NCBI GenBank assembly: GCA_963827165.1 | Contig: CAWGZR010000005.1 | Location: 672,001 to 736,000, forward strand | DNA length: 64,000 nt | Source: Candidatus Bathyarchaeota archaeon | GTDB lineage: Archaea > Thermoproteota > Bathyarchaeia > Bathyarchaeales > Bathycorpusculaceae | Direction of reading: 5' to 3' | In this document: positions 17,226-64,000 of the stretch, piece after piece | Layout of the letters: the number at the start of each line of letters is the position of its first letter | How positions within the stretch are numbered: the stretch's first letter is position 1 | The notes under the pieces: generated by a model | What the model was told of the DNA's origin: nothing | The model's input: the letters and a program-made list of their open reading frames with translations, nothing else | The model's database searches: none | Made by a program: the position numbers and the translations under genes

Positions 17226-18209
17226 TTAGATGGGGTAAGCTCCGCAAACTTTGCAGAACTGTATCTTGGTTTTGATGTAGCTGTGGCATTTCGGGCATTG
17301 TATGCCGCCTTCGATTTTAGGGAAGATGTCTTTTGGTTTGCCGAATTTCTTGCGGAATACTTCATAGTAAAGCAGTTGCTCTTTGTCTTGGATTTCAACG
17401 TCGTCTGCCTCTTTGATTGCTGCTTTCTTCTCCGCGAATTCCTTCTCAGTTACCATGTCATTGAAGTAGGTCCTCAGAGTCTCTGTTCCTGTTCCCGCTT
17501 CAAGCGGCGCTTTAGGTCTCCAGATGACGTCTTTAGGAATCACATCCTCATAGGCCATGCGCAAAATCCATTTGCTATATTTCACGCCGTCATGCATGTT
17601 AATCTTGAATTTGATAGGCAACTTCATAGCCCAATCCATGAATGATGGGTCACGGTATGGTGCTTTGATTTTCATTCCAAGAGATTCCGCCATTGGGTCC
17701 GATGAGAAACCCATCTCCGCCCACATTTCCTTCTGTTTCACTTCGAATTCAGCTTCAGACAGATGGAATTGCCATGGGTAGCCGAAGAGTTCATCAAGTG
17801 CGTCACCGGTGAATACAGTTTTGATTCCTTTGGGTTTGAACAGGGTTAAGCCGATGTACACTGGTAGGCTGTTTCTGATTTCCATTGGGTCGAATTTTTT
17901 GAGTGCTTCCACAACTTTTGGGTAGAATTTCATTACGTCTTCTTTGCCAAACTGGTACGTCTCCTGTTTCAGGTGAAGGAGCTCAACCATCCGCTTTACG
18001 TATTCGGTGTCTTTTGGTTTTCCATGTTTAAAGGCTAAGGTTAGGCATGGTATGTCAGGTTTGTATTTTACTGCCTCATAGGCGATTATTTGGGTGTCGG
18101 TTCCAGCTGAAAATAAGAAGCCGTCAGCCATGTTGTCTTTGACACATTTGTTTATCAGGGTTCTGACTTTTGGCAAGAGTTTGGTATATTCTGAAGGGTC
18201 TAGCGTCAT
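17226..18209 (-). CDS. Asparagine-synthase-like ATP pyrophosphatase lacking a glutaminase domain, with C-terminal Zn ribbon
   Basis: Variant PP-loop FSAGTDT, TGDALDELFGY, KWILRMAYE, WRPKAP, CPKC..CKVC; likely start MTLDP at 18209. Confidence 0.8.
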   Translation of the reverse strand: MTLDPSEYTKLLPKVRTLINKCVKDNMADGFLFSAGTDTQIIAYEAVKYKPDIPCLTLAFKHGKPKDTEYVKRMVELLHLKQETYQFGKEDVMKFYPKVVEALKKFDPMEIRNSLPVYIGLTLFKPKGIKTVFTGDALDELFGYPWQFHLSEAEFEVKQKEMWAEMGFSSDPMAESLGMKIKAPYRDPSFMDWAMKLPIKFKINMHDGVKYSKWILRMAYEDVIPKDVIWRPKAPLEAGTGTETLRTYFNDMVTEKEFAEKKAAIKEADDVEIQDKEQLLYYEVFRKKFGKPKDIFPKIEGGIQCPKCHSYIKTKIQFCKVCGAYPI

Positions 18210-18386
18210 TTCTTTCCCTCGCAATGTATTGTTTGTCATTTTACCAGTATTTAAGTTTACCTTATGCATACAAAAGCCAATAAATTATAAACAAGTGTGC
18301 TGAAAGTGAGCAAAATACTGAACAGACGAGTTAAGACATCTGTCCAAAAAGGCCCTAATCGAAACATCACATTTAAAAGTTAAAAA

Positions 18387-19181
18387 ATGTCAGTCATAAC
18401 AACACCCGCAGGCGCCAGAGGTAGACCTTTGAAAGTAAGCCTACTGCATATGGAGATACGCAATACTTTTGAAGCAAACATAGCCGCAGCCAAAGCCGCA
18501 GTTGAAAAAGCCTCAAAAGAAAAACCAGCAATAATCGCCCTACCCGAATACTTCACCATACCCAACTGCATGGCAGATTTCACCGACGCACAAAAAATTT
18601 CCGAAGAAACCTGCAAAGAAACACTACGATTTCTGCAAGAAGAATCAAAACAGATCGGCGACATCTACCTTTTAGGTGGCTCTGTCCTCGAAGAAGACAA
18701 CGGACAATACTACAACACAAGCACCCTCTGGAAAAACGGCTCCCTATTGGCAAAATACAAAAAAATGAACCCAATACGAGCCGAAATCACAGCCGGGGTT
18801 GCCAGAGGCCGCCAACCCGTCGTTGTTGACACGCAAATCGGCAGAATTGGCCTGTTAGTTTGCGCTGATTCGTTTGACCCCGGTCTTGTGAAACGGGTCG
18901 CGGAGATGGGTGCAGAGATTGTTTCTCTTCCTGTTGCTGCAATGGGAACTCATCCCGTGGTGAAGGGCCACCCATTAACTGAAGGGATCGCACGTACATA
19001 CGGTCTGTTCCTGCTTAAGGTGGGGAATGTGTGTTCAAGCATGAGGGGGGGAAGAAGCGCCATAATCGCTCCATGGGGAACACTTGGCGAAGTAACTGAC
19101 GCGCCTGAAGACTCGATATTGACCCGAGACCTCGACTTTCCGCGATTAAAAGAATACCGAAGCAAACTCAATAGAGCTTAG
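18387..19181 (+). CDS. Carbon-nitrogen hydrolase (nitrilase superfamily)
   Basis: Glu-Lys-Cys triad in LPEYF, YKKMN and LVCAD; GRSAIIAPWG. Confidence 0.88.
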   Translation: MSVITTPAGARGRPLKVSLLHMEIRNTFEANIAAAKAAVEKASKEKPAIIALPEYFTIPNCMADFTDAQKISEETCKETLRFLQEESKQIGDIYLLGGSVLEEDNGQYYNTSTLWKNGSLLAKYKKMNPIRAEITAGVARGRQPVVVDTQIGRIGLLVCADSFDPGLVKRVAEMGAEIVSLPVAAMGTHPVVKGHPLTEGIARTYGLFLLKVGNVCSSMRGGRSAIIAPWGTLGEVTDAPEDSILTRDLDFPRLKEYRSKLNRA

Positions 19182-20052
19182 CCCAACCGTCAACGATTCG
19201 GCTCATTTCCTTAAAATCATATGTTTTCAGCCAATCTCTTAGATTTTCGTTTTGAACGGCAAACTTGCAAACTTGCCTCGCATTCTCAGAGTCATGCACC
19301 AGCAACAAAACAGCATCAACTTTGTGTCTCGAAACGTAAGCTACTGTTTTCAACAACGCCTCAAGTTTTTCGTCAGTTGGCATTTCAGCGCTCAACTCCA
19401 CCACAACAGGTTTCTTGAGTGATGCAACAAAATCCCTTGCCAACATGATCGCCCAGTAGTTAGTAAAGTAATCTCGTGATGAAAGCGGAACGTGAAAATA
19501 ATCAACCAAATCCGCTATCACGCCAAGGTCTAGACCATACCGCTCTTTCGCAAGAACTGGGTCAGGGTAAATTTCCACCGCGAAAGATCCCTTCACCCGC
19601 GATTTGGCTTCCTTCAAAAACTGGGTCACCGTTTGTGCTCTCCACTCTGTCCAGTTTAGCCCGCTTTGTTTCCAAAGTTCAACGCATCTGGGGCAGACGC
19701 AGTATTCTTGGTCGGGAAAATGGTATAGGTTTAGGGTTACGCCCAAAATGTTTTCCTTGCTTAAGCTTTCAATGTAGTTTAAGGCTTTTGCCTTGTAAGC
19801 TGGGTGGGTTGGGCATACAAAGTCAAAAGCAAGGTTTGAACGCTTGTTTTTGCGAAGCGCTGGACCCGTGTTTGACATTGCGACTAAGGTGGGGTCTTCT
19901 CTTATTGCTTTAGCGTCGCAAAAGACCGTGACGTCGTTTTGCATGTCTTTGGCGGCCGGAAAAACTTGTCCATCGGCAGATTTTGAATAATAAACTTGAA
20001 GGTCGTAGCCCTCGACTTTCTCGGGCTTGTAAGTTACTAACCCTATCTGCAT
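19168..20052 (-). CDS. Cys-rich putative TIM-barrel (glycoside-hydrolase-like) protein, paralog A
   Basis: DFVCPTHP, HFPDQEYCVCPRC, WTEWRAQTVTQFL, PDP..YG.D shared with 21457..22362. Confidence 0.6.
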   Translation of the reverse strand: MQIGLVTYKPEKVEGYDLQVYYSKSADGQVFPAAKDMQNDVTVFCDAKAIREDPTLVAMSNTGPALRKNKRSNLAFDFVCPTHPAYKAKALNYIESLSKENILGVTLNLYHFPDQEYCVCPRCVELWKQSGLNWTEWRAQTVTQFLKEAKSRVKGSFAVEIYPDPVLAKERYGLDLGVIADLVDYFHVPLSSRDYFTNYWAIMLARDFVASLKKPVVVELSAEMPTDEKLEALLKTVAYVSRHKVDAVLLLVHDSENARQVCKFAVQNENLRDWLKTYDFKEMSRIVDGWAKLY

Positions 20053-20104: not shown

Positions 20105-20323
20105 TTGATTCGCATGGGCAAACAGAAAAAATCTCCAATTATTATTGACATCACCAAATGTACTCCTTGTGCAGGAATCATCTGCGTCGGCGTTTGCCCT
20201 CAAGCTGTGTTTGAAGAAGGCAAAAATAGAAAGCCGGAGATAATCGACGTGGTTGAGTGTACTCAATGTGGCGTCTGCGTGAGTTTGTGTCCAGCAAAAG
20301 CAATTACTATAACCAAGTCGTAA
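20105..20323 (+). CDS. 2[4Fe-4S] ferredoxin
   Basis: CTPCAGIICVGVCP and CTQCGVCVSLCP. Confidence 0.9.
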   Translation: MIRMGKQKKSPIIIDITKCTPCAGIICVGVCPQAVFEEGKNRKPEIIDVVECTQCGVCVSLCPAKAITITKS

Positions 20324-20347: not shown

Positions 20348-21391
20348 ATGGAGCAGTTTGAACTTGCAGACAACGTGAGGCTGGTTGTCAAAGAAAATGT
20401 ACTAGCCGTAATTTGTGATACTCCTTTAAAGACAGTTAGTTCAGCATTCTATCATGGCGGGTATAACCAGCTTAAAGCTGTCCTCAATGTAGGGGTGCCG
20501 GACGGATACAGTGACCGATCCTTGCACCTTGACCCGCTAGAACTAATCACCTCATCCGCCTCCAAACTGGGATTAACAAACGATTACCTCGCTATGGTCA
20601 CAGCCGCCAAAATCCAAAACTTCAGCCTAGTCACCAAAAAACTCGACGGCTTCTCAGTCAGCGTCGCCGCAACAGCAGGTTGCAAACACGGAGAATCAAG
20701 CGGCGAAGAAATGAATGTACAGGAAATCGCCGGAGGCACAATAAACCTCATCGTCTTCCTCGACGCTGACCCCACAGACAGCTGCATGGTGGCATCCGTC
20801 ATCACAGCAACCGAGGCGAAATCCGCAGTTCTCAGAGACTTTGATGTTCGCAGCTTCTATACAGGTGATTCCGCGACTGGATCCATAACCGACAGCGTAT
20901 CAGTGGTCTCTAACGGCAAAGGCAAAGCGATCAACTATGCTGGTCCAGCCTCAAAATTGGGCAAAGCAGTCGGCTTCTGCACAAAAAAAGCAGTATCCGA
21001 AGCACTCATCAAGCAAGAACCCTTCTGGGCAAGCCGAACCGCTCTTGACAGGCTCAAAGAGAGGCATCTTCCACTGGAGAAACTTGCCGCGGAGGTATCC
21101 AAAGTCGAAGGCTTAGGTGTCAATGCTGAGAGTTTGGCTGAAATTCTAAAAAATAAACCCGTTGCCCTCGCTCATTTGTTGGCGGCGGCAAAAATGGATG
21201 ACGAGATAAAGAAGAACTTGTTGACTAAAGAATTCGTTGATGCTGCTGACCTCAGCAAATGCTTCGGCAACCTGGCCAACGAAGTAAAGGATTGCTCTAA
21301 CCAGCCAAGTTACGATTCAGTTGATCTGCCACCCTTTCTGAAACATGTTTTAATCAAAATTGTGAAGAAAGCTCTTTCTGGCGATAGCTGA
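20348..21391 (+). CDS. cbiZ: Adenosylcobinamide amidohydrolase CbiZ with a C-terminal CobZ-like extension
   Basis: MVTAA, ATAG, GTINL, TATEAKS, ATGSITDS and YAGPAS CbiZ motifs, followed by about 120 extra residues. Confidence 0.85.
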   Translation: MEQFELADNVRLVVKENVLAVICDTPLKTVSSAFYHGGYNQLKAVLNVGVPDGYSDRSLHLDPLELITSSASKLGLTNDYLAMVTAAKIQNFSLVTKKLDGFSVSVAATAGCKHGESSGEEMNVQEIAGGTINLIVFLDADPTDSCMVASVITATEAKSAVLRDFDVRSFYTGDSATGSITDSVSVVSNGKGKAINYAGPASKLGKAVGFCTKKAVSEALIKQEPFWASRTALDRLKERHLPLEKLAAEVSKVEGLGVNAESLAEILKNKPVALAHLLAAAKMDDEIKKNLLTKEFVDAADLSKCFGNLANEVKDCSNQPSYDSVDLPPFLKHVLIKIVKKALSGDS

Positions 21392-22747: not shown

Positions 22748-24133
22748 TTGAAGATTACTTTGGTTAATCCTCCTTACCCGCTGCATGTGCATTCGCATCC
22801 GCCGTTTATTCCGCTTGGCCTAGCCTATCTGGGCGCGGTGGCGGAGCGGGCAGGGCATGAAGTCAACATCATTGACTGCCAAGCTGAAAAACTACTATAT
22901 GATGGGTTCCGGCAGAGAATCAGCCAATTGAAATCCGATGTCATCGGGGTAACCGCCACCACGCTCCTGTATAAGTCAGCCATGCAGCTTATCGACATAG
23001 CCAAGGATGTGCAGCCGCAAGCAGTGACCCTGCTGGGGGGAAGCCACGGAACTTTCTGGGACGAAAACGCCCTCAAAGAGTTCCCGAGCCTTGATGTGGT
23101 TGTAAGACGAGAAGGCGAAGTGACCTTTATCGAGCTCCTCAGCAAACTGCAAATCGGCAGCAGCCTTGCAGACGTGCTCGGAGTTACCTTCAGGTCAAAA
23201 GACGGCACAATAATTCGCAATGAAGACAGACCATTCATGGAGGATTTGGATTCACTTCCGTTTCCCGCCCATGATTTGCTCCCGCTCGAATCGCTCAAAC
23301 GAATGGGCAAAATCCTTTTTCCACTCATTACCAGCCGCGGTTGCGTATACTGGTGTGACTTCTGTAGTACAGTGCGAATGTTTGGCAGAGGATACCGTTT
23401 CAGAAGCCCAAAAAACGTTGTCGACGAAATGCAATTGGTCCACGACAAATACGGCGTGGATCAAGTCACCTTCTATGATGATGCATTCTCAGTTAACCGC
23501 GATCGAGTTCTCAAAATCTGTGAGGAACTCCATGCTAGAAACCTTGACATGACATGGGACTGCGGAACACGCGTCGACATGGTTGATCGAGAAATGCTCA
23601 AAACCATGCATGAAGCAGGATGCATAGCTGTTTGGATGGGCGTTGAATCAGGTTCAGAAGCCATACTAGGCAAAATGAACAAGAAAATCAAGCTTGATCA
23701 GACACGCGCAGCATTCAAAACAGCAAACGATGTTGGTTTAATGACTATTGGAAACGTTGTGTTGGGCTTTCCAGGCGAAACTGAGCAGACAGCGAAAGAA
23801 ACAATTCGCTTTGTCAAGGAACTTAACCTTGCTGACGTCGGCTTCTACGTTGCTACACCGTATCCTGGGACACCAATGTATGAGCAGGTCAAGAATAACG
23901 GTTGGCTACGAGTCACTGATTTCGATAAATACGATACTGCGGGGCCGACATTCGAAACTCCTTGGTTGACCATGGAGAAACTTGCGGAAATCCGCTACAA
24001 AGCCTATCAGCAATTCTATCTGCGCCCAGGTTACGTGTTTCACATGATGCGTAAAGGTGGAACTTACGGTAAGTCAGCGGTGAAAACTTCAGGCGCTTAC
24101 CTGCTCAGAGCTTTGCATATCAGGCTGTCTTAA
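22748..24133 (+). CDS. Cobalamin-binding radical SAM enzyme #1
   Basis: N-terminal B12 domain (PLGLAYL, GGSHGT, EGE), TSRGCVYWCDFC, GVESGS, TPYPGT. Confidence 0.92.
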   Translation: MKITLVNPPYPLHVHSHPPFIPLGLAYLGAVAERAGHEVNIIDCQAEKLLYDGFRQRISQLKSDVIGVTATTLLYKSAMQLIDIAKDVQPQAVTLLGGSHGTFWDENALKEFPSLDVVVRREGEVTFIELLSKLQIGSSLADVLGVTFRSKDGTIIRNEDRPFMEDLDSLPFPAHDLLPLESLKRMGKILFPLITSRGCVYWCDFCSTVRMFGRGYRFRSPKNVVDEMQLVHDKYGVDQVTFYDDAFSVNRDRVLKICEELHARNLDMTWDCGTRVDMVDREMLKTMHEAGCIAVWMGVESGSEAILGKMNKKIKLDQTRAAFKTANDVGLMTIGNVVLGFPGETEQTAKETIRFVKELNLADVGFYVATPYPGTPMYEQVKNNGWLRVTDFDKYDTAGPTFETPWLTMEKLAEIRYKAYQQFYLRPGYVFHMMRKGGTYGKSAVKTSGAYLLRALHIRLS

Positions 24134-24531: not shown

Positions 24532-25443
24532 CTACATAAACATCTTGTAGATCGGATGAGTTTCCTCGACTGGTCTTGTTCCAAGGTCGCCTGCGGCTGA
24601 AGCAACGTATGTGTCGGTTATGGCTACGGCGGGGAATATCCATTCAGCTTGCTCTGCGGGTCCAATCATAAGCCAGTTTGCGCCTACAGTCTGCATGATA
24701 GAGTTGGTTGAGGTTCTGCATCCGGGGCGGAATTCTTTCGCGACGTTTGCTTTGACCCAACCCATAGTTGTGACTACGTTTCCGCTGCCCAGGCCTACTG
24801 GATGACCATACTTCTCTTTCATAATCGGTATGGTTCTAACTGCTGTACCCATGTCTGGAGCGAACGCTGGAATGGCTGTGTCAATCAAAGGCTTTGTGAT
24901 TCCACCTTTTTCTGCCAACGCTAATGCTTCCTCAATGACCTTCATTTTACCTTCCATTGTGGTATCTTTAGGATCATCGGCAAGCACTATTGACATTTTG
25001 ACACCGCTTTCTTTCAAATTCGCCAATTCAGCATCGGTAACACCCTTGTAGACTGAATTGTAGAGGCATCGGTCTGCAAGACCCATCTTCTTAGCGATAG
25101 TGGCTGCAGTCATACGTGTCTTCGGACTCATCGCATCAAGCATTAATGGAGCATCGCTGTGTTTCGCAACGAAGTCAATGTATTTCTCAAAAGCCAACTC
25201 CGTAGTTCCAACAATGTCAAACGCAAACTGCACACCAGTAATGTCACTTTGATTCTGCATCGTGTTGATGATGTCTTCCGCAGCTTTAGCGTCAAAAATA
25301 CCCTTGTTTGCATCTTGAACCATTTTCTGGCCAAGCCAAAAGATGGATCCGATGAGAAAAGTCGGTAGTTCTCCCGGTTGTCCGCCTACTTTAGCTCTTC
25401 CAACAGTGTATATTTTCTGTTCGGTGTTGAATTTAAAGGACAT
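24532..25443 (-). CDS. MtrH-like pterin:corrinoid methyltransferase
   Basis: MSFKFNTEQKIY..VGGQPGELPT..GSIF, LYNS and KPLIDT match the MtrH/MtgA family. Confidence 0.88.
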   Translation of the reverse strand: MSFKFNTEQKIYTVGRAKVGGQPGELPTFLIGSIFWLGQKMVQDANKGIFDAKAAEDIINTMQNQSDITGVQFAFDIVGTTELAFEKYIDFVAKHSDAPLMLDAMSPKTRMTAATIAKKMGLADRCLYNSVYKGVTDAELANLKESGVKMSIVLADDPKDTTMEGKMKVIEEALALAEKGGITKPLIDTAIPAFAPDMGTAVRTIPIMKEKYGHPVGLGSGNVVTTMGWVKANVAKEFRPGCRTSTNSIMQTVGANWLMIGPAEQAEWIFPAVAITDTYVASAAGDLGTRPVEETHPIYKMFM

Positions 25444-25462: not shown

Positions 25463-25891
25463 TTATTTTTTGCCTATAGCTTTTTTTGCGAGTTCAGGAG
25501 CTTCTTCCTTGTTTTTACCAAAGAATGCGCCCATGGCATCAGCGTCTTCCTTTTTGACGGCAGCACCGCCCATGATTATGGCGATTTTTCCTTTGAGGCC
25601 AGCTGCTTTTAATGCTTCATCTAGCTTTGCAAGATTGTTCTTAGCAGGCACGGTATTCACAGAAACAGCAATCAAGTTTGCGTTGTTCTCTTTTGCTTTG
25701 TCAACGAAAACTTGCGGGGCAACGCTTTTTCCGACGTCGATTGTTTTAAATCCAGCGCGTTTTAGTGACCTTCTGACTGCTTCTTTCGCAGTGTCATGCA
25801 TGTCAGGTTCGATATTGCCGATGACGACTATGCCGATTGGATTCTCTGGTTCTGGAGGCTCTTTTTCCATCATAGATTTAAGCCACGACAT
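25463..25891 (-). CDS. Stand-alone corrinoid-binding protein
   Basis: DMHDTAK (variant DxHxxG), GFKTIDVG, IIMGGA. Confidence 0.85.
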   Translation of the reverse strand: MSWLKSMMEKEPPEPENPIGIVVIGNIEPDMHDTAKEAVRRSLKRAGFKTIDVGKSVAPQVFVDKAKENNANLIAVSVNTVPAKNNLAKLDEALKAAGLKGKIAIIMGGAAVKKEDADAMGAFFGKNKEEAPELAKKAIGKK

Positions 25892-32158: not shown

Positions 32159-32620
32159 TTATTGCTTTTCATGTTTGGTGAAACGCGTGCGCCTTATTTG
32201 GAGAAATCCTTCAATTGTGAAAACGGTCAAGGCCAGAACGGTTATGAATATAAGCAGTAGAAAGAAAACTTTGAATTCGTAGGTTTCAACCGGGTAATGT
32301 ATGGCTAAAATTACTGCTTCTGTCACGAGGATTGCTAAGAAAAGGATTGAGTAACGCCACATATTAGGAACCAGACGTTTGCCGATCCATACGTATCCTG
32401 AAACGTGTGCTTTGTTTTTCGTAATGTACTCCCCGTACTGGTTTTTTTTAAGGTAGCCTAGGCCCTCGAGTTTCTGCAAGTGCCTATATGCAACACTTGG
32501 GCTACTGAGATTGGCAGCTTTCATTATTTCTCGGGGTCCAACAGGTTTGCCTAACTTTAAAATGTGTAAGTACACCTCTAAAGTTATTCCCTCTAACTCT
32601 CCTTGGTCCGTCTTAGCCAT
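32159..32620 (-). CDS. Membrane-anchored wHTH regulator
   Basis: PVGPREIMKAANLSSPSVAYRHLQKL HTH followed by two TM helices. Confidence 0.8.
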   Translation of the reverse strand: MAKTDQGELEGITLEVYLHILKLGKPVGPREIMKAANLSSPSVAYRHLQKLEGLGYLKKNQYGEYITKNKAHVSGYVWIGKRLVPNMWRYSILFLAILVTEAVILAIHYPVETYEFKVFFLLLIFITVLALTVFTIEGFLQIRRTRFTKHEKQ

Positions 32621-35762: not shown

Positions 35763-35820
35763 AAACAATTTGATTGAAAGGAAATGAATGGCGGAAAAAC
35801 GGGTTTAGAAAAAATCAGGT

Positions 35821-49298: not shown

Positions 49299-49565
49299 TC
49301 AAATTTGTGCCTTGCTTTTTTCAGCCTTCATAAGTTCAGCAGTAAGCCTCCAGAGAAAGAATCCCAGTGCACTGACAAAAAACATCGCGATTGTGAAAGT
49401 GTCTGTTCTTACGTTCAGTAGATGGGAAACACGTTCTGGCAGCCATTCCGGATGAGTAAACTGTATGACTACTCCGTCTAGCCACGCTAGGAAACCGAAA
49501 AAGAACAGCATCTCCCCGACAACCTTGATGATGACAAGCGCTAATCTATTGGAAGAAGTATTCAT
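49299..49565 (-). CDS. Small two-TM membrane protein
   Basis: Two hydrophobic helices flanking a THPEWL..SHL..RTDTF loop. Confidence 0.7.
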   Translation of the reverse strand: MNTSSNRLALVIIKVVGEMLFFFGFLAWLDGVVIQFTHPEWLPERVSHLLNVRTDTFTIAMFFVSALGFFLWRLTAELMKAEKSKAQI

Positions 49566-55578: not shown

Positions 55579-58314
55579 ATGCAAATTGGAAAAAACAAAA
55601 TAATTACTCTCGCAATTACGGTGCTATTCATATTCTCAATGAGCGCTTCAATGATGCTAATACCCTCTGTAAACGCACATACACCCGCATGGACTATTCC
55701 AACCTACGCTTATATCACTATATCACCCAATCCAGTCGGCGTCGGCCAGCAAGCGTACGTAATCATGTTTCTTGACAAGCTATATGACAACACACTATCA
55801 ATTAACAACTATCGATTCCATAATTACCAACTGGTTATTACGGCTCCAGACGGTACAAACACAACAGAAAGTTTCCCAGTGATTCAAGACACGACATCCG
55901 CACAAGACTATGCCTTCACACCAAACACTGTTGGCACCTACACGTTAACATTCATATTCCCAGGACAGACATTAACTCTTGCCAACGATGCTAATTCTGA
56001 AGCCACACTTTTTGGTCCACCAACTTTTCCGAACCCATACATCAATGATACCTATGCACCAAGCAGCGCAACGACAACTCTTACCGTGCAATCTTCACCC
56101 GTCCCAACAGCGACCGCAAGCGGCCCGCTGCCAACAGCATACTGGACTCGTCCAATATACGGCGAGAACAGCTATTGGTACACCCTCTCGTCAAACTGGC
56201 TAGGCACTGGAAGCCCAGGCTACTCAGGCTTTGGCGGGACTTCAAACCAGCAGTCATTCCCAGGCGATGCAGTCGGGTCTCTAACCAGCCATGTCATGTG
56301 GACTAAACAGCTTCAAAGCGGCGGAGTCGTCGGAGGAAACACAGTTGCTATTCCAGCAAACACCTACTTCGAAGGATCGGCATACAGCCAAAGATACACC
56401 AACCCAATAATCGTCGACGGAATGCTCATCTACACCAACCCGATAGGCTGGTCTGATGTCCCTGGAGGAACCGGTGGGCAAGGATACGGAGCGACAACCT
56501 GCGTTGACCTACAAACAGGGCAGACACTTTGGACTAACCCTACCATGAAAGCATTAAGCTTTGCTTACATATATGATGCTGAAGACCCTAACCAGCACGG
56601 CGTTTGGCCACCAGTGCTAATATCTTCAACTGCCTCCAACGGTGGTATCTTTGGAGCCGGGGCAGGCAATTGGTATGCATATGACGCCGACACAGGAACG
56701 TCGATTTTCAACATAACCAATGTTCCAGGCGGTGCAACGATGCTCGGACCATCAGGCGAATTCCTCGTCGATAACATAGTAAGCTACGGGCCAATCACCA
56801 TGGGTCCATTCGGTCCATCACATTCAGGAGCTCCATATTACTTGCAAGAATGGAATTCATCCAAACTATGGGACAGCACATATTCCGGTGCTTCAACAGT
56901 TCCAGGCCTAATTCCGACATATACCGACGGAAGCAATCCTGCCCTACTAGACTTTAACATCTCAATACCCTCATTACAAGCCGCACCAACGATACAAGAT
57001 GCTTTCTACAACAAAATGTTGATTGTCTCAACGGGCACTTTCCCAGGCGGTCCTTTTGAAACATTCTCATCAGATAGCTGGACACCTTACACATACTACG
57101 GCATAAGCGTCGCATCAGGCAGCATCGGCAATGTTCTATGGACTAACACGGTCACACCACCCGCAGGAAACATTACAGTAGAACCAGGACCCGCAGATCC
57201 AACAGCTGACGGCGGTCACGGAGTCTTCACAGAAGGATACAAAGAAACTACGCAGTTCGTAGGCTACAGCATGTCGACAGGTCAGAAGATTTGGGGTCCG
57301 ACCCAAATGATGGCGCCTCTTGACTACTACGGCAACCCAGCAATTCCAATCATTGGAGGAGTTGCAGCCAACGGAAAACTCTACAGCACAGGCTACGCAG
57401 GAATACTCTACTGCTGGGACATCACAACTGGCGACCTATTGTTTACGTGGGGGAACGGCCCATCAGGCTCAACCAACAGTTCATACGCTGGCTTTAACAC
57501 TCCATTCGGTGTATACCCAATGCAAATCAACGCTATTGGCAACGGCATAGTGTACATGGTTACAACAGAGCACACAATTGAAACACCACTATTCAAGGGA
57601 GGATTTACATCAGCTGTTAACGCGACAACTGGCCAACTTATCTGGACACTCTCAGACTACACAGGCGAATTCTTCACAACTTCATATGCAATGGCAGACG
57701 GCTATAACACCTGGTTCAACGGCTATGACAACTCAATCTACGTTGTAGGCAGAGGACCAAGTCAAACAACCGTCGACGCACCAAACGTTGCAACAACAAT
57801 CGGCGTACCAGTAGTGATACGCGGCAGCGTATTAGACACTGCAACCGGAACACAGGGAACACAGCAGAAAGGCGATTTTCCAAACGGCGTTCCATGCGCA
57901 TCTGATGCAAGCATGACCGCATGGATGGGATACGTGTACCAGCAACAAGCAATGCCAACCAACTTTACAGGTGTTAAAGTGCAACTCTCGGTCTTAGACT
58001 CTAACGGAAACCACTACTCAATAGGAACCACAACAACTGACACGAGCGGTATGTACACTCTCAGCTATACACCCACAATCTCAGGCAACTACACAGTATA
58101 CGCCACATTCGCAGGAACCAACGGGTACTGGCCATCATCAGCAGAAACAAGCTTCGTAGCAACCGGAGCGCACGCAACCGAAGCGCCAACCGCAACACCT
58201 ACAACCGGATTAGCAAGTGAATCAACAGTTGAATACGTAGGCATCGCAATCATCATTGTGATAATAATAATCGGCGCAGTATTAGCCCTCTTGATGATGC
58301 GAAAACACCCATAA
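55579..58314 (+). CDS. Large secreted, TM-anchored surface protein with divergent PQQ-like repeats and Ig-like domains
   Basis: Signal peptide, Thr/Gly/Pro-rich, D..TG..LW repeats, many sequons, C-terminal TM with RKHP tail; strong SD AAGGAG. Confidence 0.88.
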   Translation: MQIGKNKIITLAITVLFIFSMSASMMLIPSVNAHTPAWTIPTYAYITISPNPVGVGQQAYVIMFLDKLYDNTLSINNYRFHNYQLVITAPDGTNTTESFPVIQDTTSAQDYAFTPNTVGTYTLTFIFPGQTLTLANDANSEATLFGPPTFPNPYINDTYAPSSATTTLTVQSSPVPTATASGPLPTAYWTRPIYGENSYWYTLSSNWLGTGSPGYSGFGGTSNQQSFPGDAVGSLTSHVMWTKQLQSGGVVGGNTVAIPANTYFEGSAYSQRYTNPIIVDGMLIYTNPIGWSDVPGGTGGQGYGATTCVDLQTGQTLWTNPTMKALSFAYIYDAEDPNQHGVWPPVLISSTASNGGIFGAGAGNWYAYDADTGTSIFNITNVPGGATMLGPSGEFLVDNIVSYGPITMGPFGPSHSGAPYYLQEWNSSKLWDSTYSGASTVPGLIPTYTDGSNPALLDFNISIPSLQAAPTIQDAFYNKMLIVSTGTFPGGPFETFSSDSWTPYTYYGISVASGSIGNVLWTNTVTPPAGNITVEPGPADPTADGGHGVFTEGYKETTQFVGYSMSTGQKIWGPTQMMAPLDYYGNPAIPIIGGVAANGKLYSTGYAGILYCWDITTGDLLFTWGNGPSGSTNSSYAGFNTPFGVYPMQINAIGNGIVYMVTTEHTIETPLFKGGFTSAVNATTGQLIWTLSDYTGEFFTTSYAMADGYNTWFNGYDNSIYVVGRGPSQTTVDAPNVATTIGVPVVIRGSVLDTATGTQGTQQKGDFPNGVPCASDASMTAWMGYVYQQQAMPTNFTGVKVQLSVLDSNGNHYSIGTTTTDTSGMYTLSYTPTISGNYTVYATFAGTNGYWPSSAETSFVATGAHATEAPTATPTTGLASESTVEYVGIAIIIVIIIIGAVLALLMMRKHP

Positions 58315-58398: not shown

Positions 58399-59259
58399 AT
58401 GCGTTTATTGGCAAGGCTAACCCGCCATAGATGGGATTACACTTTGCCTCAAGACCTGACGCTTAAAGAAAAAATTCATCGAGCAAACATACACGTTCAC
58501 CATCTTGAAGCACAATACTACGAACTGCTCCACCCTGAAGTGTACTCCAAGCAAGAACAAAAAAGAACGACTGCGAAGCTCCAAGAAGTTGATAAGCTTA
58601 TCACCGACAACCACAGAGTCGCTCTGGATGTCGGGGCAGGTACCGGAAACCTAACGGGCAAACTTCTACATATGGGTTACACCGTCACCGCCGTGGACAT
58701 TTCACAAGAAATGTGCGCAATCCTCCCCAAAAAATACCCTGCCTATCTCAAAAATGAAAAGTTGAAGGTGATTTGCGCACCCATTGAGGAGATGGATTTT
58801 GAAGAACAACAATTTGACGCTATCACATGCTACTCCGTGCTTCATCATCTACCCGACTACATTTACGCCCTCCGCTGCCTCTCAGTTTTCCTAAAGAAGG
58901 GCGGAGTTATGTACCTCGACCATGAAGCATCCCCTTTCTACTGGAAAAACGAACCCAGCATGCTTTCCAGCCTCGTGAAAGGGATATATCTGCACTCAAA
59001 TCCTCTGCTTAACAGCTTGTACTTTCAAATAACCGGGTTAAGAGTACCCTCAATAGATTACGAGCTTTCGGATTATTGGCATAAAAAAGAGCACGCCCTA
59101 AACCACGGGAGCATAAAGCAATTGTTCAAAGATGAAAAATATCAGTTTTCAAAACGTACTGATTACTACGAAACCAGCACTTGGATTCCCAGCCCACTTT
59201 CCTTCATTTACCGCCTTCTATGTAGCCCTGAAATGAGCTGTTGGACAGCTAAAAAATAA
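58399..59259 (+). CDS. Class I SAM-dependent methyltransferase
   Basis: LDVGAGTG, AVDIS, FDAITCYSVLHHLPD, LKKGG. Confidence 0.9.
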   Translation: MRLLARLTRHRWDYTLPQDLTLKEKIHRANIHVHHLEAQYYELLHPEVYSKQEQKRTTAKLQEVDKLITDNHRVALDVGAGTGNLTGKLLHMGYTVTAVDISQEMCAILPKKYPAYLKNEKLKVICAPIEEMDFEEQQFDAITCYSVLHHLPDYIYALRCLSVFLKKGGVMYLDHEASPFYWKNEPSMLSSLVKGIYLHSNPLLNSLYFQITGLRVPSIDYELSDYWHKKEHALNHGSIKQLFKDEKYQFSKRTDYYETSTWIPSPLSFIYRLLCSPEMSCWTAKK

Positions 59260-60636
59260 CTACGCGATTCCAACGTTTTGGTGAGCTTTTGGGTTCAATC
59301 TTCTTTTTGCGAAGTTAAAGGCGCCTTCACGTTTTACCCGCTTCATTATTTGTTTTGGCGAGCGGTGGAAATCTATGAAGAATCTTCTTTGAATTTTTAG
59401 CAGGGAGTTGTAGTCAAACTCTTTGGTTTTTACAGCTAGCAGAAAATCGTCAAGCTTGACATAACTATTTGAATCTAAGACTTCCTGATAGAGCCTGCTA
59501 TCTGGGTTTGCAATGAAGATGTTAAATATACACCAGTCGGGACTCAGTTTTTTAGCGAACTTCAACGACATTTCCATATCTTTGAGCGTCTCGTCTGGGA
59601 CACCCAGCATGAATGAGCAGGCTGTTTTTATGCCATTTTTGCTGCAAAGCTTGAAGGCGGTTTCTATCTGCTCAAGAGTTGTGTTTCGCCCGATCCGCTG
59701 TAGAATCCTCTGCGACCCCGACTCCACGCCGAACCAGATTGTTTTGCATCCCGCTTTGCTCATGGTCTCCAAAAGTTCCTGGTTAACTAAATCCACGCGG
59801 GTGTCACATACCCATTCTAAATCTAGATTATTCTCAACCATCAGATTGCAAAGTTCGATGGTTTGTTTCTTTCTGAGTGTAAAGTTGTCGTTGATGAAGT
59901 AAATTCCTTTTGTGCCATACTTGCTTTGCAAATCCTTTATTTCCCCGATGACCCGCTGTGGACTGAATGCTCGGCAGATGTTTCCCCAGAGTTTTTTTGT
60001 TTCGCAGAAGCCGCAGTTGTAGACGCATCCCCGTGAGATGCTCATTATGTCGGCGGGTTTAACGTTGAGGTACTCAACGGTTCTGTCGTAAAGTTCGAGC
60101 TTTAACAGGTGCCTTGCGGGATAAGGAATTTCATCCATGTTTTCGATGAATTTTGGCGGGTTTTTGATGTTTTTGCCTTGACGTTTGCATGCGACTCCAG
60201 GTATTGTCATGGCGGCTTGTTCATTGCCGTTTGTTATGCATGTAGCTAGTTCCGTTATTGCGCGTTCGCCTTCGCCCATAACAACGTAGTCGATTTCAGG
60301 GTTGTCCAGCAAACTGTCGGGAACGTAAGAGGCGTGCCATCCGCCAACGATTATCTTACAATCAGGTAGGGTTTCCTTGATGGCTTTGGCGGTTTCTGTA
60401 CAGCGCGAATAGGTGGCTGACCCACAGGTGATGCCAACAATTTGAGGTTTAAGATTGAACACCAGCTGTTTTACTTCGCTGATGGGGTTTTTCATAAGGT
60501 AGTTGTCGAGCATCTGCACTTCGAAGCCTGCTTTTTCCAGTGCCGCGGCAACATACATTAAACCTATAGGAGGCAACCGTTTGCCAAGGTACCATGCGCC
60601 GTTTTCGGGAGGAGCCGTTGTCATTAAAAGAATCAA
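59260..60636 (-). CDS. Cobalamin-binding radical SAM enzyme #6
   Basis: PPIGLMY, GGWHAS, GEGE, SRGCVYNCGFC, GVESGS. Confidence 0.92.
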   Translation of the reverse strand: MILLMTTAPPENGAWYLGKRLPPIGLMYVAAALEKAGFEVQMLDNYLMKNPISEVKQLVFNLKPQIVGITCGSATYSRCTETAKAIKETLPDCKIIVGGWHASYVPDSLLDNPEIDYVVMGEGERAITELATCITNGNEQAAMTIPGVACKRQGKNIKNPPKFIENMDEIPYPARHLLKLELYDRTVEYLNVKPADIMSISRGCVYNCGFCETKKLWGNICRAFSPQRVIGEIKDLQSKYGTKGIYFINDNFTLRKKQTIELCNLMVENNLDLEWVCDTRVDLVNQELLETMSKAGCKTIWFGVESGSQRILQRIGRNTTLEQIETAFKLCSKNGIKTACSFMLGVPDETLKDMEMSLKFAKKLSPDWCIFNIFIANPDSRLYQEVLDSNSYVKLDDFLLAVKTKEFDYNSLLKIQRRFFIDFHRSPKQIMKRVKREGAFNFAKRRLNPKAHQNVGIA

Positions 60637-60868
60637 ATTAGTTTTCTCCTTCTGTGAAACTTTGCAATCTAAGCAGCACGTTTTGTCTCCCTGTAAACGT
60701 TTGCTTACTTTGATTAAACCCGCGTTTATAGGTTTAACTGAACCTACGTTTAGGAGTGTTTGTTATTTGTTTTTGCTGTTTTCTGAAAGCAAAGCCTGTG
60801 GTTGCAGATGTTTATGAAAAGGTTTATAGCCCTTCCGAGTGCCTTTTCCAGAACGAAGAGGGGTAAAG

Positions 60869-61576
60869 ATGAAAGTTGTCGTCCACTGGAGCGGCGGCAA
60901 AGAATGCTGCTTAGCTTACCACAAAGTCGTCAAGCAGGGACATCACGTTGCTTGTCTTCTCAGCTTCGAATATCAGCGTCCTTACGTATTTCACAGTTTC
61001 CAGATGATGCATCTCCAATCCCAAACGCTGGGCACGCCCCTTAAAGTTGTCAGAATCAGAAAGCCGTACGAAGACATCCTTGGCGCCCTGAGCAAACTAA
61101 AGGATGAGGAGGGCATTGAAGGCATCGTTACAGGCGATATAGCTGGTGCAGGATGCGCCATTGTACACTCAAGCTACTATGAGAGTATGGCCAAACAGTT
61201 GGGGTTAGCTTTCTTGATGCCTAACGAGGGCGACACGTACGAAGTGCTTAAGGACGCTGTGAGCACAGGTCTAAGACCGGTCTTAACTTGTATCAACACC
61301 AACTTTTTCGGCGAGGAATGGCTGGGAAGAAAACTTGATCCAGAATCCGTCAAGGAACTCAAAGCGATAGCCGACGAAAAAGACATTGACGTTGCCAGCG
61401 AAGACGGACAAGGCTACCACAGCACCGTGGTCGAAGCGCCTCTTTTTAAAGATTCTTTGAGCATAGGCAAATTCAAAACTAAGAAAAAGAAGGAAAAATC
61501 CAAAAATTGGAAAAGAAACTGGCTCTACATGGACATTAAAGAGTGCCATTTGACGCCAAAGCAACCGTCCAAGTGA
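60869..61576 (+). CDS. DUF71/diphthine-ammonia-ligase-like ATPase, paralog B
   Basis: WSGGKEC, FHS, GIVTGDI, WLGR, YHSTVVEAPLF; start MKVVV at 60869. Confidence 0.85.
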   Translation: MKVVVHWSGGKECCLAYHKVVKQGHHVACLLSFEYQRPYVFHSFQMMHLQSQTLGTPLKVVRIRKPYEDILGALSKLKDEEGIEGIVTGDIAGAGCAIVHSSYYESMAKQLGLAFLMPNEGDTYEVLKDAVSTGLRPVLTCINTNFFGEEWLGRKLDPESVKELKAIADEKDIDVASEDGQGYHSTVVEAPLFKDSLSIGKFKTKKKKEKSKNWKRNWLYMDIKECHLTPKQPSK

Positions 61577-61705
61577 GGTTCCTTCGACCTTTTGGCCTTC
61601 ATCATTCTGAAAATCTGATATTTTAGGTTTCAGATGGAAAATTGCGTGCAATTGCATAAAGTAAATGTAGCACAAGGTATAAACTCTATTGCTTCAGGTA
61701 AAAAC

Positions 61706-63118
61706 ATGAAAACTCGCATTACTCTTGTCAATCCGCCGTACCCTGCCGGTTCCCATCAACATCCCCCTTTCATGCCTCTGGGTATAGGGTACTTAGGCGC
61801 TGTGTTGTACAAGAATCACTTTGAAGTTAACGTGATTGATTGTCAAGCGCAGAAATTAACGCACAGCCAATTCAAAGAGGAAATCAGCAAGGTTCAGCCG
61901 GACATAGTTGGAGTCACCTGCACAACCCTCACCTACAAGTCAGCGCTCGGCATAGTGAAAATAGCTAAACAAGTTTGGCCAAAATGCCTAACCGCAATCG
62001 GAGGACCCCACGTCACTTTCTGGGATGAAAAGGCACTGCAGGAATGTCCTGAACTTGACATTGTGGTCAGAGGCGAAGGCGAGAATACGATTCTTGAACT
62101 TGCGCAGAGAGTCGAAAACGGTCAAGCGTATCATGACCTCATCGGAACTACCTGCAGAAACGGCTCGGCAATGGCGAAGAACCCCGATAGACCGTATTTG
62201 GAGAACCTCGACAGCTTACCGTTCCCAGCTCTGCATCTATGGTCGCACACGGCGAACTTGCGCAAATACGGTACGATTCCCTACCCAGTGATGACAAGCC
62301 GCGGCTGCGTCTACTGGTGCAATTTCTGCACAACTGTGCGTATGTTTGGCAGAAGATACCGCATGCGCAGCACCAAAAACGTGGTTGACGAGTTGGAGTT
62401 CCTGCACAAGAACTATTATGCGACTCAATTCACCTTTTACGATGACGCATTCACAGTTAACCAAGAACGGACGATGGAGATATGCGACGAAATCGTGCGC
62501 AGAGGGCTAAAAATCAAATGGGACTGTGAAACCCGAGTGGACATGGTTTCCAAAGAATTGTTCGTTAAGATGAGGGAAGCAGGTTGCATCGCTGTTTGGT
62601 TCGGTGTAGAGTCGGGTTCAAAGACGCTTCTAACCAGCATGGGAAAGGGTTTCTCGCTTACGCAGACAAGACGGGCTTTCAAGTGGGCAAAAGAAGCGGG
62701 CTTGATGACAGTTGCAGGCGTCATTTTAGGATTTCCCGGCGAAACCAAGGAAACCGTTTGGGAAACAATCCGGTTCATAAAAGAGCTGAACCCAAATGAC
62801 GTCGGCTTCTACATTGCAACACCTTACCCAGGAACACCGCTATATGAGGAAGTCAAAGCAAGCGGTAGGCTAAAGATAACTGACTTCGACAAGTATGACA
62901 CTGCAACGCCGACTTTCGAGATTCCAAATTTCACGATGCAAGAGCTATCACAAATCCGGGAAAAAGCATTCCAAAGCTTCTACCTTAGCCCAGCATACTT
63001 CGTCAGCGCTCTTGGCATGTTCAGACAAGGCAAAATGTGGGGTTTAGGCGCAACTCGACTGATTCTCGCTCACGCAAGACGGGCAGTAATAGCGAGGGCA
63101 AACAGCATCATGAAATAG
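61706..63118 (+). CDS. Cobalamin-binding radical SAM enzyme #7
   Basis: PLGIGY, GGPHVTFWD, TSRGCVYWCNFC, TPYPGT; start MKTRIT at 61706. Confidence 0.92.
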   Translation: MKTRITLVNPPYPAGSHQHPPFMPLGIGYLGAVLYKNHFEVNVIDCQAQKLTHSQFKEEISKVQPDIVGVTCTTLTYKSALGIVKIAKQVWPKCLTAIGGPHVTFWDEKALQECPELDIVVRGEGENTILELAQRVENGQAYHDLIGTTCRNGSAMAKNPDRPYLENLDSLPFPALHLWSHTANLRKYGTIPYPVMTSRGCVYWCNFCTTVRMFGRRYRMRSTKNVVDELEFLHKNYYATQFTFYDDAFTVNQERTMEICDEIVRRGLKIKWDCETRVDMVSKELFVKMREAGCIAVWFGVESGSKTLLTSMGKGFSLTQTRRAFKWAKEAGLMTVAGVILGFPGETKETVWETIRFIKELNPNDVGFYIATPYPGTPLYEEVKASGRLKITDFDKYDTATPTFEIPNFTMQELSQIREKAFQSFYLSPAYFVSALGMFRQGKMWGLGATRLILAHARRAVIARANSIMK

Positions 63119-63145
63119 AAAAATTTTGACGGAGAAAATGTTAGA

Positions 63146-64000
63146 TTGATTTTGCTGATGACTACTGCGCCGCCCTTGAAGTCGCCTTGGGGCGTGGCTG
63201 GAAGGCTTCCTCCTTTGGGTTTGGCATACGTTGCCTCAGTACTGGAAAAAAGCGGCTTCCAAGTTGAAATCTACGACAATTACTTGCTCGAGCGACCCAT
63301 CGAAGAAGTTAAATCGGAAATAAGAAAATGCTCCCCAGAAATCGTTGGCTTAACATGCAATTCTTTGTCTTATGAGCGAGTCGTGGAAATGGCTAAGACA
63401 GTTAAAGAGGCGTGTCCTTCCTGCCGCGTTATTATCGGCGGTCCGCATGCCTCGTACATGCCTGAGACACTGCTTGAACACCCGGAGATAGATTACGTAG
63501 TTGTCGGAGAAGGAGAGAGGGCCATGGTTCAGCTTGTTTTCAACATTACAAAAGGCGAAAAGGCCTCGGCGGCAGCGCAGATTCCCGGAGTTGCATGCAA
63601 AATCGGTGGTGAAATAGCCGAAACTCCACCTCAATTCATCGCTAACCTGGATGAGGTTCCTATTCCAGCCCGTCAATTGCTGCCGATGCGGATGTACGTT
63701 CGGGAACTGAGTTATCTTAGCGTTAAACCCGTTGACACCATGAGCATACATCGTGGTTGTCCCTACAGATGCGCTTACTGCGAGACAAGGGAGCTTTGGG
63801 GCTCAGCTTGCCGCGCGTTTTCGCCGCAGAGAGTAATCGACGAAATCCAGCAGATAGTCGAAACCTACGGCACAAAAGGCATTTACTTTGTCGGCGACAA
63901 CTTTACCATAAACAAAAAACGCACAACCGAACTTTGTCGCCTTATGAAAAGCAACAAAATCGATTTGAAGTGGACTTGCGAAACACGCTCCGACCTAATC
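63146..64000 (+). CDS. Cobalamin-binding radical SAM enzyme #8, truncated by window end
   Basis: Not in the ORF track. Manual translation: MILLMTTAPPLKSPWGVAGRLPPLGLAY...GGPHAS...HRGCPYRCAYCETRELWG; close paralog of #6. Confidence 0.9.
   Translation, partial: MILLMTTAPPLKSPWGVAGRLPPLGLAYVASVLEKSGFQVEIYDNYLLERPIEEVKSEIRKCSPEIVGLTCNSLSYERVVEMAKTVKEACPSCRVIIGGPHASYMPETLLEHPEIDYVVVGEGERAMVQLVFNITKGEKASAAAQIPGVACKIGGEIAETPPQFIANLDEVPIPARQLLPMRMYVRELSYLSVKPVDTMSIHRGCPYRCAYCETRELWGSACRAFSPQRVIDEIQQIVETYGTKGIYFVGDNFTINKKRTTELCRLMKSNKIDLKWTCETRSDLI

Follow-up and report, generated by a model that had tools for sequence, protein, structure and literature searches.

A conserved island of B12-dependent radical SAM genes in Bathyarchaeia, a candidate for tetraether-glycolipid tailoring

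Bathyarchaeia are abundant in anoxic soils and sediments. The stretch of DNA analysed here, called the window, covers 64,000 nucleotides (positions 672001-736000 of contig C5) of the 3.13 Mb, 94.5% complete genome of Candidatus Bathyarchaeota archaeon (assembly GCA_963827165.1), and from position 17226 to its end it carries a gene cluster rich in radical S-adenosylmethionine (SAM) enzymes. In these enzymes a [4Fe-4S] cluster cleaves SAM to give a 5'-deoxyadenosyl radical, which abstracts a hydrogen atom from an unactivated carbon; in the B12-dependent members the carbon radical thus formed receives a methyl group from methylcobalamin. The reading that we prefer, with a probability of about 0.55, is that the window holds the left two-thirds of an accessory island of approx. 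65 kb that tailors a tetraether glycolipid and possesses a dedicated cobamide branch. The genes of the cluster inside the window are listed below; rS1 to rS8 are the B12-dependent radical SAM enzymes, identified by Pfam and placed by phylogenetic trees inside or outside a clade of Gmm-like enzymes described later, and the relatives are the eight whose corresponding regions were compared.

17226-18269, minus: Asn-synthase-like ATP pyrophosphatase domain (PF00733) without glutaminase, with a C-terminal Cys4 ribbon; 82-87% identity in six of the eight relatives
18387-19181, plus: nitrilase-family protein (PF00795), E-K-C residues visible, divergent from the Asn-synthase gene; a possible ammonia donor
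19168-20052, minus: Cys-rich TIM-barrel-like protein a, no Pfam match, 34% identical to the product of 21457
20105-20323, plus: 2[4Fe-4S] ferredoxin (Fer4 families)
20348-21391, plus: CbiZ (PF01955), second copy; the other copy is near btuFCD on contig C4
21457-22362, plus: Cys-rich TIM-barrel-like protein b, with a GHL10/DUF4015-like lead
22748-24133, plus: rS1, Gmm-like clade
24532-25443, minus: MtrH/MtgA-like methyltransferase (PF02007), slightly below the TIGR01114 cut-off
25463-25891, minus: stand-alone corrinoid protein (PF02310)
26011-28320, plus: GT-C-like membrane protein 1, no Pfam match, PMT_2/GT39-like lead from the ESM Atlas
28329-30743, plus: GT-C-like membrane protein 2, no Pfam match, labelled from its architecture alone
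30924-32021, minus: AhbD-like radical SAM/SPASM protein 1, without a Gms-type N-terminal extension
32159-32620, minus: winged-helix regulator with eight paralogues in the genome
32873-34273, plus: RnfD-like membrane domain fused to an RnfC-like 4Fe-4S domain (PF03116 and Fer4; TIGR01946 and TIGR01945 below cut-off), a candidate for electron supply
34452-35120, plus: six-helix membrane protein of no known family (1271 homologues; a Pfam domain in none of the 120 listed)
35821-37116, minus: HemN/ChuW-like radical SAM protein (Pfam, NCBIfam)
37253-38653, minus: rS2, Gmm-like clade
38845-39588, plus: divergent DUF71 protein (His-type), no best-hit orthologue in the eight relatives' regions
39639-41885, minus: secreted PQQ-type beta-propeller protein 1 with a C-terminal membrane anchor, 19 other matches in the genome
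41943-43040, minus: AhbD-like radical SAM/SPASM protein 2, without a Gms-type extension
43307-45889, plus: secreted beta-propeller protein 2, best-hit match in all eight relatives' regions
45905-47371, minus: rS3, Gmm-like clade
47641-49290, plus: amidohydrolase-3 family protein (PF07969), in all eight relatives
49299-49565, minus: 88-residue membrane protein, in two of the eight relatives
49979-51427, minus: rS4, outside the Gmm-like clade
51480-52475, minus: CbiB, second copy, over the TIGR00380 cut-off; the other copy is on C4
52577-53986, minus: rS5, Gmm-like clade
54061-55083, minus: tandem Lrp/AsnC regulator (family profile)
55579-58314, plus: surface protein of 911 residues, probably a passenger because it has 37 other BLAST matches in the genome and its position varies among relatives
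58399-59259, plus: class I SAM methyltransferase, in all eight relatives
59260-60636, minus: rS6, outside the Gmm-like clade
60839-61576, plus: divergent DUF71 protein (His-type), in a DUF71-rS7-rS8-DUF71 module found in four of the eight relatives
61634-63118, plus: rS7, Gmm-like clade
63146-64000, plus: rS8, outside the Gmm-like clade; truncated where the window ends, with its stop at window-equivalent 64516

The cluster had been noticed, in an earlier note made from the sequence, as eleven radical SAM genes with apparent cofactor, methyl and electron supply, still running at the window edge. All eleven lie within 17226-64000, with a CxxxCxxC motif in each; eight match the Pfam B12-binding and Radical_SAM families, two Radical_SAM and SPASM, and one Radical_SAM and HemN_C. 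Family profiles also agree with its cbiZ, cbiB, two DUF71, ferredoxin, MtrH-like and corrinoid pair, RnfD-Fer4 fusion, Asn-synthase domain without glutaminase, nitrilase, amidohydrolase-3, methyltransferase and two regulators, and to this inventory the two TIM-barrel-like genes and the small membrane proteins at 34452 and 49299 have to be added. Two labels held in part: of the three beta-propellers proposed two are strong, whereas the third, at 55579, has a weak PQQ_2 match plus an Ig domain; and neither GT-C-like protein has a Pfam match, the ESM Atlas giving a lead for the one at 26011 only. The cluster does continue past the window, for approx. 18 kb, to about window-equivalent 82 kb. The genes found there, in window-equivalent coordinates read from the neighbouring stretches L001 and L002, are the following.

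64671: rS9, a ninth B12-dependent radical SAM enzyme, Gmm-like clade
66574: third DUF71
67648: cobD (cobD2)
69395-72269 and 79971-81972: three GT2 and two GT4 glycosyltransferase genes, two of the GT2 AglJ-like
beyond the window end: DUF362 gene
73221-74654 (L001:10221-11654): Gms-like SPASM enzyme of 477 residues
74721-76171: cobY2-cobS2, head to head with the next operon
76210-79508: SDR, DGGGP synthase 2 and tes2 (tes2 at L001:15036-16508)
82637-85814: canonical DUF71-cobT-cobS-cobY operon (cobS1, cobY1), after which ordinary genes resume

Most island genes are second copies in this genome, with identities to the copy elsewhere of 38% for tes, 30% for the DGGGP synthase, 43% for cbiB, 36% for cobD, 30% for cbiZ, 33-34% for cobS and cobY, and 41% for the HemN-like gene. 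The island accounts for 14 of the 45 Radical_SAM matches of the genome. Two queries recovered 14 B12-radical SAM genes in all, nine of them within 43 kb (1.4% of the genome), and when such genes were placed at random more than six fell in a 43-kb span in none of 100,000 trials. This statistic tells that the cluster is real and nothing more; local duplication alone would also cluster paralogues.

A first line of evidence for the proposed function comes from the genes to the right of the window. The 477-residue SPASM enzyme has an AhbD core, an N-terminal extension and the CxxxCxxC motif at residue 127, and thereby fits the published description of Gms, an AhbD homologue with a 100-residue N-terminal extension beside which lies Gmm, a B12 enzyme (PMC11214058; this and the other papers named below are cited for their accessible portions); the definition applied was an AhbD-like SPASM protein of at least 400 residues, with an extension of approx. 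100 residues and linkage to gmm-like genes. In the tree it joins three gms stand-ins, which are defined by gene context, with a support of 99%; it represents a subgroup of its own, with 41-48% identity to the common type. Tes2 scores 463 bits against a cut-off of 450 (NF045702), the other copy of the genome reaching 664, and aligns with the solved Tes 7TOL over residues 24-505 (7.8e-112). The gene before tes2 belongs to UbiA, and its best models include the DGGGP synthase families, with scores below their cut-offs. The two SPASM proteins inside the window were tried as Gms and rejected: they have 365 residues, the motif at residue 25-26, and a place outside the Gms clade. The best NCBIfam model for the SPASM enzymes is AhbD, with 199-224 bits against a cut-off of 500.

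The second line of evidence comes from the nine B12 enzymes themselves, in all of which the B12-binding domain is N-terminal to a radical SAM domain with CxxxCxxC. Multi-copy Gmm2 genes are described in Bathyarchaeota (Garcia et al. 2024, PMC11214058), some of them sharing one scaffold (preprint 10.1101/2023.10.20.563219), and Ted, a distant Bathyarchaeal Gmm homologue with 31% identity, desaturates tetraethers instead of methylating them (bioRxiv 10.1101/2025.10.20.683597). When the closest homologues of the island enzymes were located at 20 loci of 19 island-free genomes, a gms- or grs-like gene lay within approx. 5 kb at nine loci, one of which is a full gms-gmm-grs-like operon. In a maximum likelihood tree made with IQ-TREE from 49 of 120 sequences, rS1, rS2, rS3, rS5, rS7 and rS9 form a clade (98/95) nested in a group with the stand-ins, an Archaeoglobus homologue and a Dehalococcoidia protein (92/95, a moderate support); FastTree recovered the same grouping from all 120 sequences with a support of 97. 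Because they group with genes that elsewhere lie beside gms- or grs-like genes, these six enzymes are classified by sequence as Gmm-like. The other three, rS4, rS6 and rS8, have stand-ins as their best non-island BLAST matches, by small margins or a tie.

Other identities were tried for the B12 enzymes and set aside. With Grs, a label which we take to fit the three Grs-like proteins used, identities were 0-23% (one match of 30%) and the position in the tree is distant; three grs-like genes are present on other contigs of the genome and none in the island. Ted-Hgs is defined by at least 500 residues and an overlapping AttH hydratase gene, and the island enzymes have 456-494 residues; PF07143 (the CrtC-family/AttH hydratase) has no match in this 94.5% complete genome. 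BchE, HpnJ, BzaD, PhpK and ApyD gave best scores of at most 250 bits against NCBIfam cut-offs of 450-750, and among the five best models for each gene no radical SAM gene of the window reached the cut-off of a named NCBIfam family. The AlphaFold model of rS1 (predicted local distance difference test, pLDDT, 87.9) matches the class B enzymes AprD4, MgmA, TsrM and TokK. Two side observations concern the loci outside the island. At five of the 20 (L075, L076, L078, L085, L086) the Gmm-like gene is beside the nickel-pincer genes larB-larC. In another Bathyarchaeon (L154:2919-8500) a B12-radical SAM gene of 509 residues stands between a grs-like gene and a 514-residue gene; it groups with a 534-residue Thermoplasmata protein (L137:479), and its outline fits the published ted-hgs-grs layout.

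The third line of evidence is conservation. For synteny, eight of 40 relatives were picked for long contigs with clustered matches, a choice biased to intact islands, and several of the regions are bounded by contig ends or by limits of 40-135 kb. The scattering of orthologues among relatives that the earlier note had named as the outcome to count against it was not found: the genes are linked in all eight regions, with their blocks shuffled, and share one distribution. One of the regions is from a relative of another family (G040), where the island genes are together at 27-64% identity. Among themselves the nine B12 paralogues share 29-58% identity, whereas their best matches in relatives are mostly 60-85% identical and sort with them into groups of orthologues; from this difference it follows that each enzyme has been separately retained. 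In one draw of 151 Bathyarchaeia genomes, with 10 candidates per genome scored and an array defined as at least three close matches, the enzyme array was present in 22, belonging to six genera and two families; a 23rd genome (G090) has three weaker matches, the two listed being far apart. The HemN-like gene and GT-C2 accompany the array in 22 of the 22 genomes, Tes2 and CbiB2 in 21 and CobS2 in 18, and none of the five was found in the 129 array-free genomes at the thresholds used, which were set to split orthologues from paralogues (for CbiB2, E below 1e-120). The island is confined to a small number of genera in one Bathyarchaeia order. The biosynthetic or modification island imagined in the earlier note is therefore conserved and co-inherited, and its envelope product is probable.

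To the gene identities, second-copy status, synteny, co-distribution and placement against context-defined stand-ins that are observed, the following scheme adds predicted activities and substrates and a single predicted product. DGGGP synthase 2 and Tes2 would make a second kind of tetraether core, and the Gms-like enzyme would bridge its chains. The six diverged Gmm-like enzymes might differ in the position or substrate on which each acts, and might transfer methyl groups or, like Ted, desaturate. GT2 and GT4 glycosyltransferases, an SDR epimerase and the GT-C-like proteins would add sugars; MetK, the MtrH-corrinoid pair, the ferredoxin and the RnfD-FeS fusion would provide SAM, methyl groups and electrons, and the second CbiZ-CobD-CbiB-CobY-CobS set, together with DUF71, would finish or remodel the cobamide required by the B12 enzymes.

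Several of these components have published counterparts. The gms-gmm-grs cluster of Thermococcus guaymasensis and the Gmm2 clade (PMC11214058) share with the island a Gms-type AhbD homologue linked to Gmm-like B12-radical SAM genes; however, the island has six Gmm-like paralogues and three other B12 enzymes instead of one, has no grs-like gene, and adds a second Tes, a DGGGP synthase, glycosyltransferases and a second cobamide-loop set. Likewise, Ted-Hgs, Cgm and Pgm (bioRxiv 10.1101/2025.10.20.683597, as far as accessible) are distant Gmm homologues that act on tetraether chains, Ted being from a Bathyarchaeon, but Ted homologues have at least 500 residues and lie beside an AttH hydratase gene, in contrast to what is found here. 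The claim of the earlier note that no described pathway has this content must therefore be narrowed: Gmm-like enzymes make up six of the nine B12 enzymes, and in the flank lie genes resembling those for Gms, Tes and DGGGP synthase, known from tetraether pathways already described. The enzyme families and the Gmm2 expansion are in the literature, the gene combination and its product are not; in the literature searched, which stopped short of subscription papers and the SI Appendix of Garcia et al., no publication was found that treats the island as a unit or that names an enzyme for backbone-methylated tetraethers. New here are the stand-in test that splits the nine enzymes 6:3, the common distribution of the core genes over genomes, and the difference in regulation between two cobS-cobY pairs. 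Many peat Gms sequences are assigned to Bathyarchaeia (Garcia et al., preprint 10.1101/2023.10.20.563219, in its accessible part). The island offers a short, ordered list of candidates expressible in existing archaeal hosts, in which a similarly distant homologue, Ted, gave a new reaction; it could assign sources to lipids that serve as environmental proxies, and B12-radical reactions not seen before might come to light. A separate question is posed by the altered second set of cobamide-loop genes.

A number of observations weigh against a role in tetraether tailoring. The Gmm, Gms and Grs references used here are stand-ins defined by gene context; the island enzymes are 32-43% identical to them, close to the 31% of Ted; and at 11 of the 20 outside loci there is no gms- or grs-like gene near the homologue. 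The node with 92/95 that unites the six enzymes with the stand-ins is below the starred threshold and also holds the Dehalococcoidia protein, and rS4, rS6 and rS8 fall outside the Gmm-like clade with both IQ-TREE and FastTree. A test for a C-terminal amphipathic helix did not favour membrane binding (median moment of 0.36 in the six, 0.57 in the stand-ins and 0.51 in the remaining enzymes), and the tail motif of the stand-ins is present in 15 of 15 of them, three of the nine island enzymes and 18 of 80 others. In one further relative (G001), outside the eight compared, the B12 enzymes are in two places approx. 340 kb apart. Kin are not independent, so that the pattern of 22 genomes, six genera and two families may reflect one or two origins. 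Finally, many island families have corrinoid or tetrapyrrole relatives, and the three B12 enzymes rS4, rS6 and rS8, the HemN-like protein, both SPASM enzymes and the altered CobS are outside the account given above.

The next alternative is, in our opinion, a possible one though on balance doubtful: the island would make an unusual corrinoid or other tetrapyrrole cofactor, with the B12-radical SAM, HemN-like and AhbD-like enzymes reworking ring side chains or the lower base. DUF71, Asn-synthase and nitrilase, amidohydrolase and CbiZ would interconvert acids and amides, the second CobD-CbiB-CobY-CobS set would attach a non-standard loop, and the lipid operon would be a mere neighbour. In its favour is the full second loop set, with two cbiB matches in 18 of the 22 island genomes. 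All the families of archaeal cobamide loop assembly and salvage (CbiZ, CobD, CbiB, CobY, CobS, CobT) are present, with DUF71 accompanying cbiB and cbiZ, but the island genes are second copies. For DUF71 of the B12 group, the accessible part of PMC3541065 gives as criterion a His replacing Glu188 of Dph6 and linkage to cbiB or B12 transport; the His is found in the four copies of the island and its flank, three of which are highly diverged. CobS2 barely passes its model (110.5 against a cut-off of 110 bits, TIGR00317) and keeps the core H-x-D-G, with conserved changes around the motif and a rewritten following loop in four of four aligned copies; in this genome, as in five of the eight relatives' regions, its gene and the tetraether operon face each other head to head. 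In G040 cobB lies inside the island. Contrary to the earlier note, the island is not self-supporting for B12: the corrin-ring and cobalt-uptake genes are on contig C9, and cobQ, btuFCD and the other cbiB-cobD and cbiZ on C4.

The HemN-like protein belongs to the same argument. Its paralogue on C4 is next to cbiZ, between cbiZ and btuFCD, and near another SPASM-like gene; from this context, the HemN, SPASM1/2, TIM-barrel, Asn-synthase, nitrilase and amidohydrolase proteins of the window may act on corrinoids rather than on lipids. The best NCBIfam models of the island enzymes include BchE, HutW and AhbD, all far below cut-off; for 35821, ChuW/HutW, HemN and HemW were rejected with 188/400, 135/325 and 150/205 bits versus cut-offs. 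Domain architecture and best scores resemble class C HemN/ChuW and AhbC/AhbD, while the scores are far below the cut-offs, and an ahbC-like gene and a second SPASM gene lie apart from the island, with tetrapyrrole genes on C9. TIM-barrel genes are present in 18 of the 22 array genomes and in five others, in four of which they are within 5 kb of cbiB; this is in favour of the corrinoid reading and assigns the family to B12 salvage and not to the island core. Its absence from the matches of four of the 22 island genomes speaks against a corrinoid-making island. This alternative also leaves unexplained why Tes2, DGGGP synthase 2, the Gms-like gene and the glycosyltransferases travel with the island, and why six enzymes are placed with gms/grs-adjacent genes.

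Three runs of genes elsewhere in the genome were noticed. On C4 (L186:8189-19103) cbiZ, a HemN-like gene, an aldo-keto reductase-FeS gene, a propeller gene, btuFCD, a SPASM-like gene and DUF2284 lie together; this B12-uptake cluster resembles a section of the island on a smaller scale. On C12 (L187:6879-11102) one run contains glnA, a complete asnB and, between them, an Asn-synthase gene that lacks the glutaminase part and is 62% identical to the window gene at 17226. On C9 (L190:4330-5184) the SPASM gene after ahbC is an open reading frame (ORF) of 284 residues from its first start codon, with no CxxxCxxC motif listed; its Pfam match starts approx. 130 bases earlier.

Regulation bears on the same question. 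A palindromic B12 box was rebuilt from four sites, so that the seed sites match by construction and the cobT site is new; sites with scores of 25-28 precede btuF (twice), cbiM, hemA/cbiA and the operon of canonical type, DUF71-cobT-cobS-cobY. No box scoring at least 14 was found before any island radical SAM gene, cbiZ2, cbiB2 or cobS2, which counts against a corrinoid product, although canonical cbiZ, cbiB-cobD and cobQ are also without a box and the absence is for this reason weak evidence. In favour of such a product, a degenerate box beside the TATA of DUF4234-cobD2 is conserved in six relatives. Two relatives have a site at the Asn-synthase/nitrilase pair. The pattern hints that the second cobamide set is not regulated as plain B12 supply. 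A further box-like site (C13:56534, score 19.6) precedes an unannotated gene of 341 residues.

A bolder proposal, which we consider unlikely, would put the whole island to work on one undescribed envelope molecule: the second CobD-CbiB-CobY-CobS set would be redirected to make an aminoalcohol-phosphate amide, convert it to an activated nucleotide form and link it through a phosphodiester to the head-group sugar of a tetraether that Tes2, the Gms-like and the Gmm-like enzymes had made, bridged and methylated at several positions. It keeps its small place because CobS2 is rewritten near the motif, faces the tetraether operon without a strong B12 box and is co-inherited with Tes2. If it were true, the lipid would carry a head group of a new type, or a corrinoid cofactor would be tethered to it.

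It is also conceivable, though we think it quite unlikely, that there is no single product and that genes for B12 salvage, B12-using enzymes, a lipid operon and multicopy surface genes gathered at the locus over a long time, as in a parking place, and were duplicated there. Blocks are indeed shuffled and inverted among relatives, with metK-GPN GTPase, acetate genes and surface paralogues coming and going; both strands and many transcription units are used, the eight relatives' regions contain no best-hit orthologue for rS9 or for one of the DUF71 genes, the two-DUF71 module is in four of the eight, and the array of G001 is split. Such a history is hard to reconcile with very different core genes sharing one presence pattern over 151 genomes, with their staying together in another family at 27-64% identity, and with paralogues that are old and separately conserved. 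The absence of core housekeeping genes claimed in the earlier note is true here, but a GPN GTPase-DUF4443-metK block is within or against island genes in six of the eight relatives' regions. In the window, metK is located as follows.

8487-9665, plus: metK, TIGR01034 over cut-off, outside the span 17226-64000

It is the sole SAM synthetase found in the genome, with no paralogue and no archaeal-type enzyme, and is 7.5 kb upstream of the island.

Very unlikely, in our view, is a surface glycan, or the propeller surface proteins, as the target, in which case the B12 enzymes would C-methylate or rearrange lipid-carried sugars and the GT-C-like enzymes would transfer them outside. Two AglJ-like GT2, further GT2 and GT4, an epimerase, two GT-C-like proteins and three anchored surface proteins would fit, as would the top structural match of rS1, the sugar-acting AprD4; yet this match, at 21% identity, is one that any protein of the fold would give, the genome has 19-37 other matches to the surface proteins elsewhere, and Tes2 and the Gms-like gene are ignored. 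Hardly credible is a function in lignin or aromatic catabolism or in pyrroloquinoline quinone synthesis, as suggested for radical SAM and PQQ-domain genes of Bathy-6 in the accessible part of PMC11697101, where 7-20 B12-radical SAM genes per Bathy-6 genome are reported and lignin roles and a PqqE-like gene proposed: the MtgA/MtrH-corrinoid pair is present and the best solved relative of SPASM2 is PqqE, but that match is weak (1e-17) and AhbD models score higher, no conserved ORF resembling a short precursor peptide was found among 100 tested, and the neighbours are biosynthetic. A cluster for ribosomally synthesized and post-translationally modified peptides was rejected with the same 100 intergenic ORFs of 18-110 residues, the conserved ones being promoter DNA or one 98-residue gene. 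This gene lies under a longer shadow ORF (L001:3182-3478, minus; window-equivalent 66182-66478), is 57-71% identical in four relatives carrying the two-DUF71 module, and has no useful Pfam match.

Other features of the locus are minor. The six-helix protein at 34452 was modelled as a possible S-component of an energy-coupling factor transporter, and the single-sequence model (pLDDT 50) gave no fold match. No Rfam structured RNA was matched in the window, L001 or L002, and no tRNA in the window or L001-L003. The GC content varies between 0.40 and 0.54, with a contig mean of 0.45, and does not clearly point to recent transfer. Intergenic arrays of 7-12 ten-base units occur at 35372-35486, 5764-5849 and 11963-12034 of the window; they are a dispersed repeat with a spacing of one helical turn, and a pattern search found none in the relatives' island regions. 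The spacer 35121-35820 has 76 other BLAST matches in the genome, one of them approx. 90% identical over 217 bases. Four sets of metatranscriptome contigs cover pieces of several island genes, mostly at less than 95% identity; these are contigs of relatives, and cannot rank genes or show transcription or co-expression. In two of the four sets, relatives of the surface protein at 55579 have a contig depth far above that of its neighbours, a value confounded by summed paralogues and by run selection. Between cinA and the island (11021-17064) lie an acetate transporter, an AMP-forming acetyl-CoA synthetase and an ADP-forming CoA ligase fused to a GNAT domain, a block that is at this position in none of the eight relatives' regions. 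L003, the 20-kb stretch upstream of the window, encodes a series of large secreted proteins, of which several begin with what resembles a signal peptide, as well as a short ORF judged by eye to be dockerin-like.

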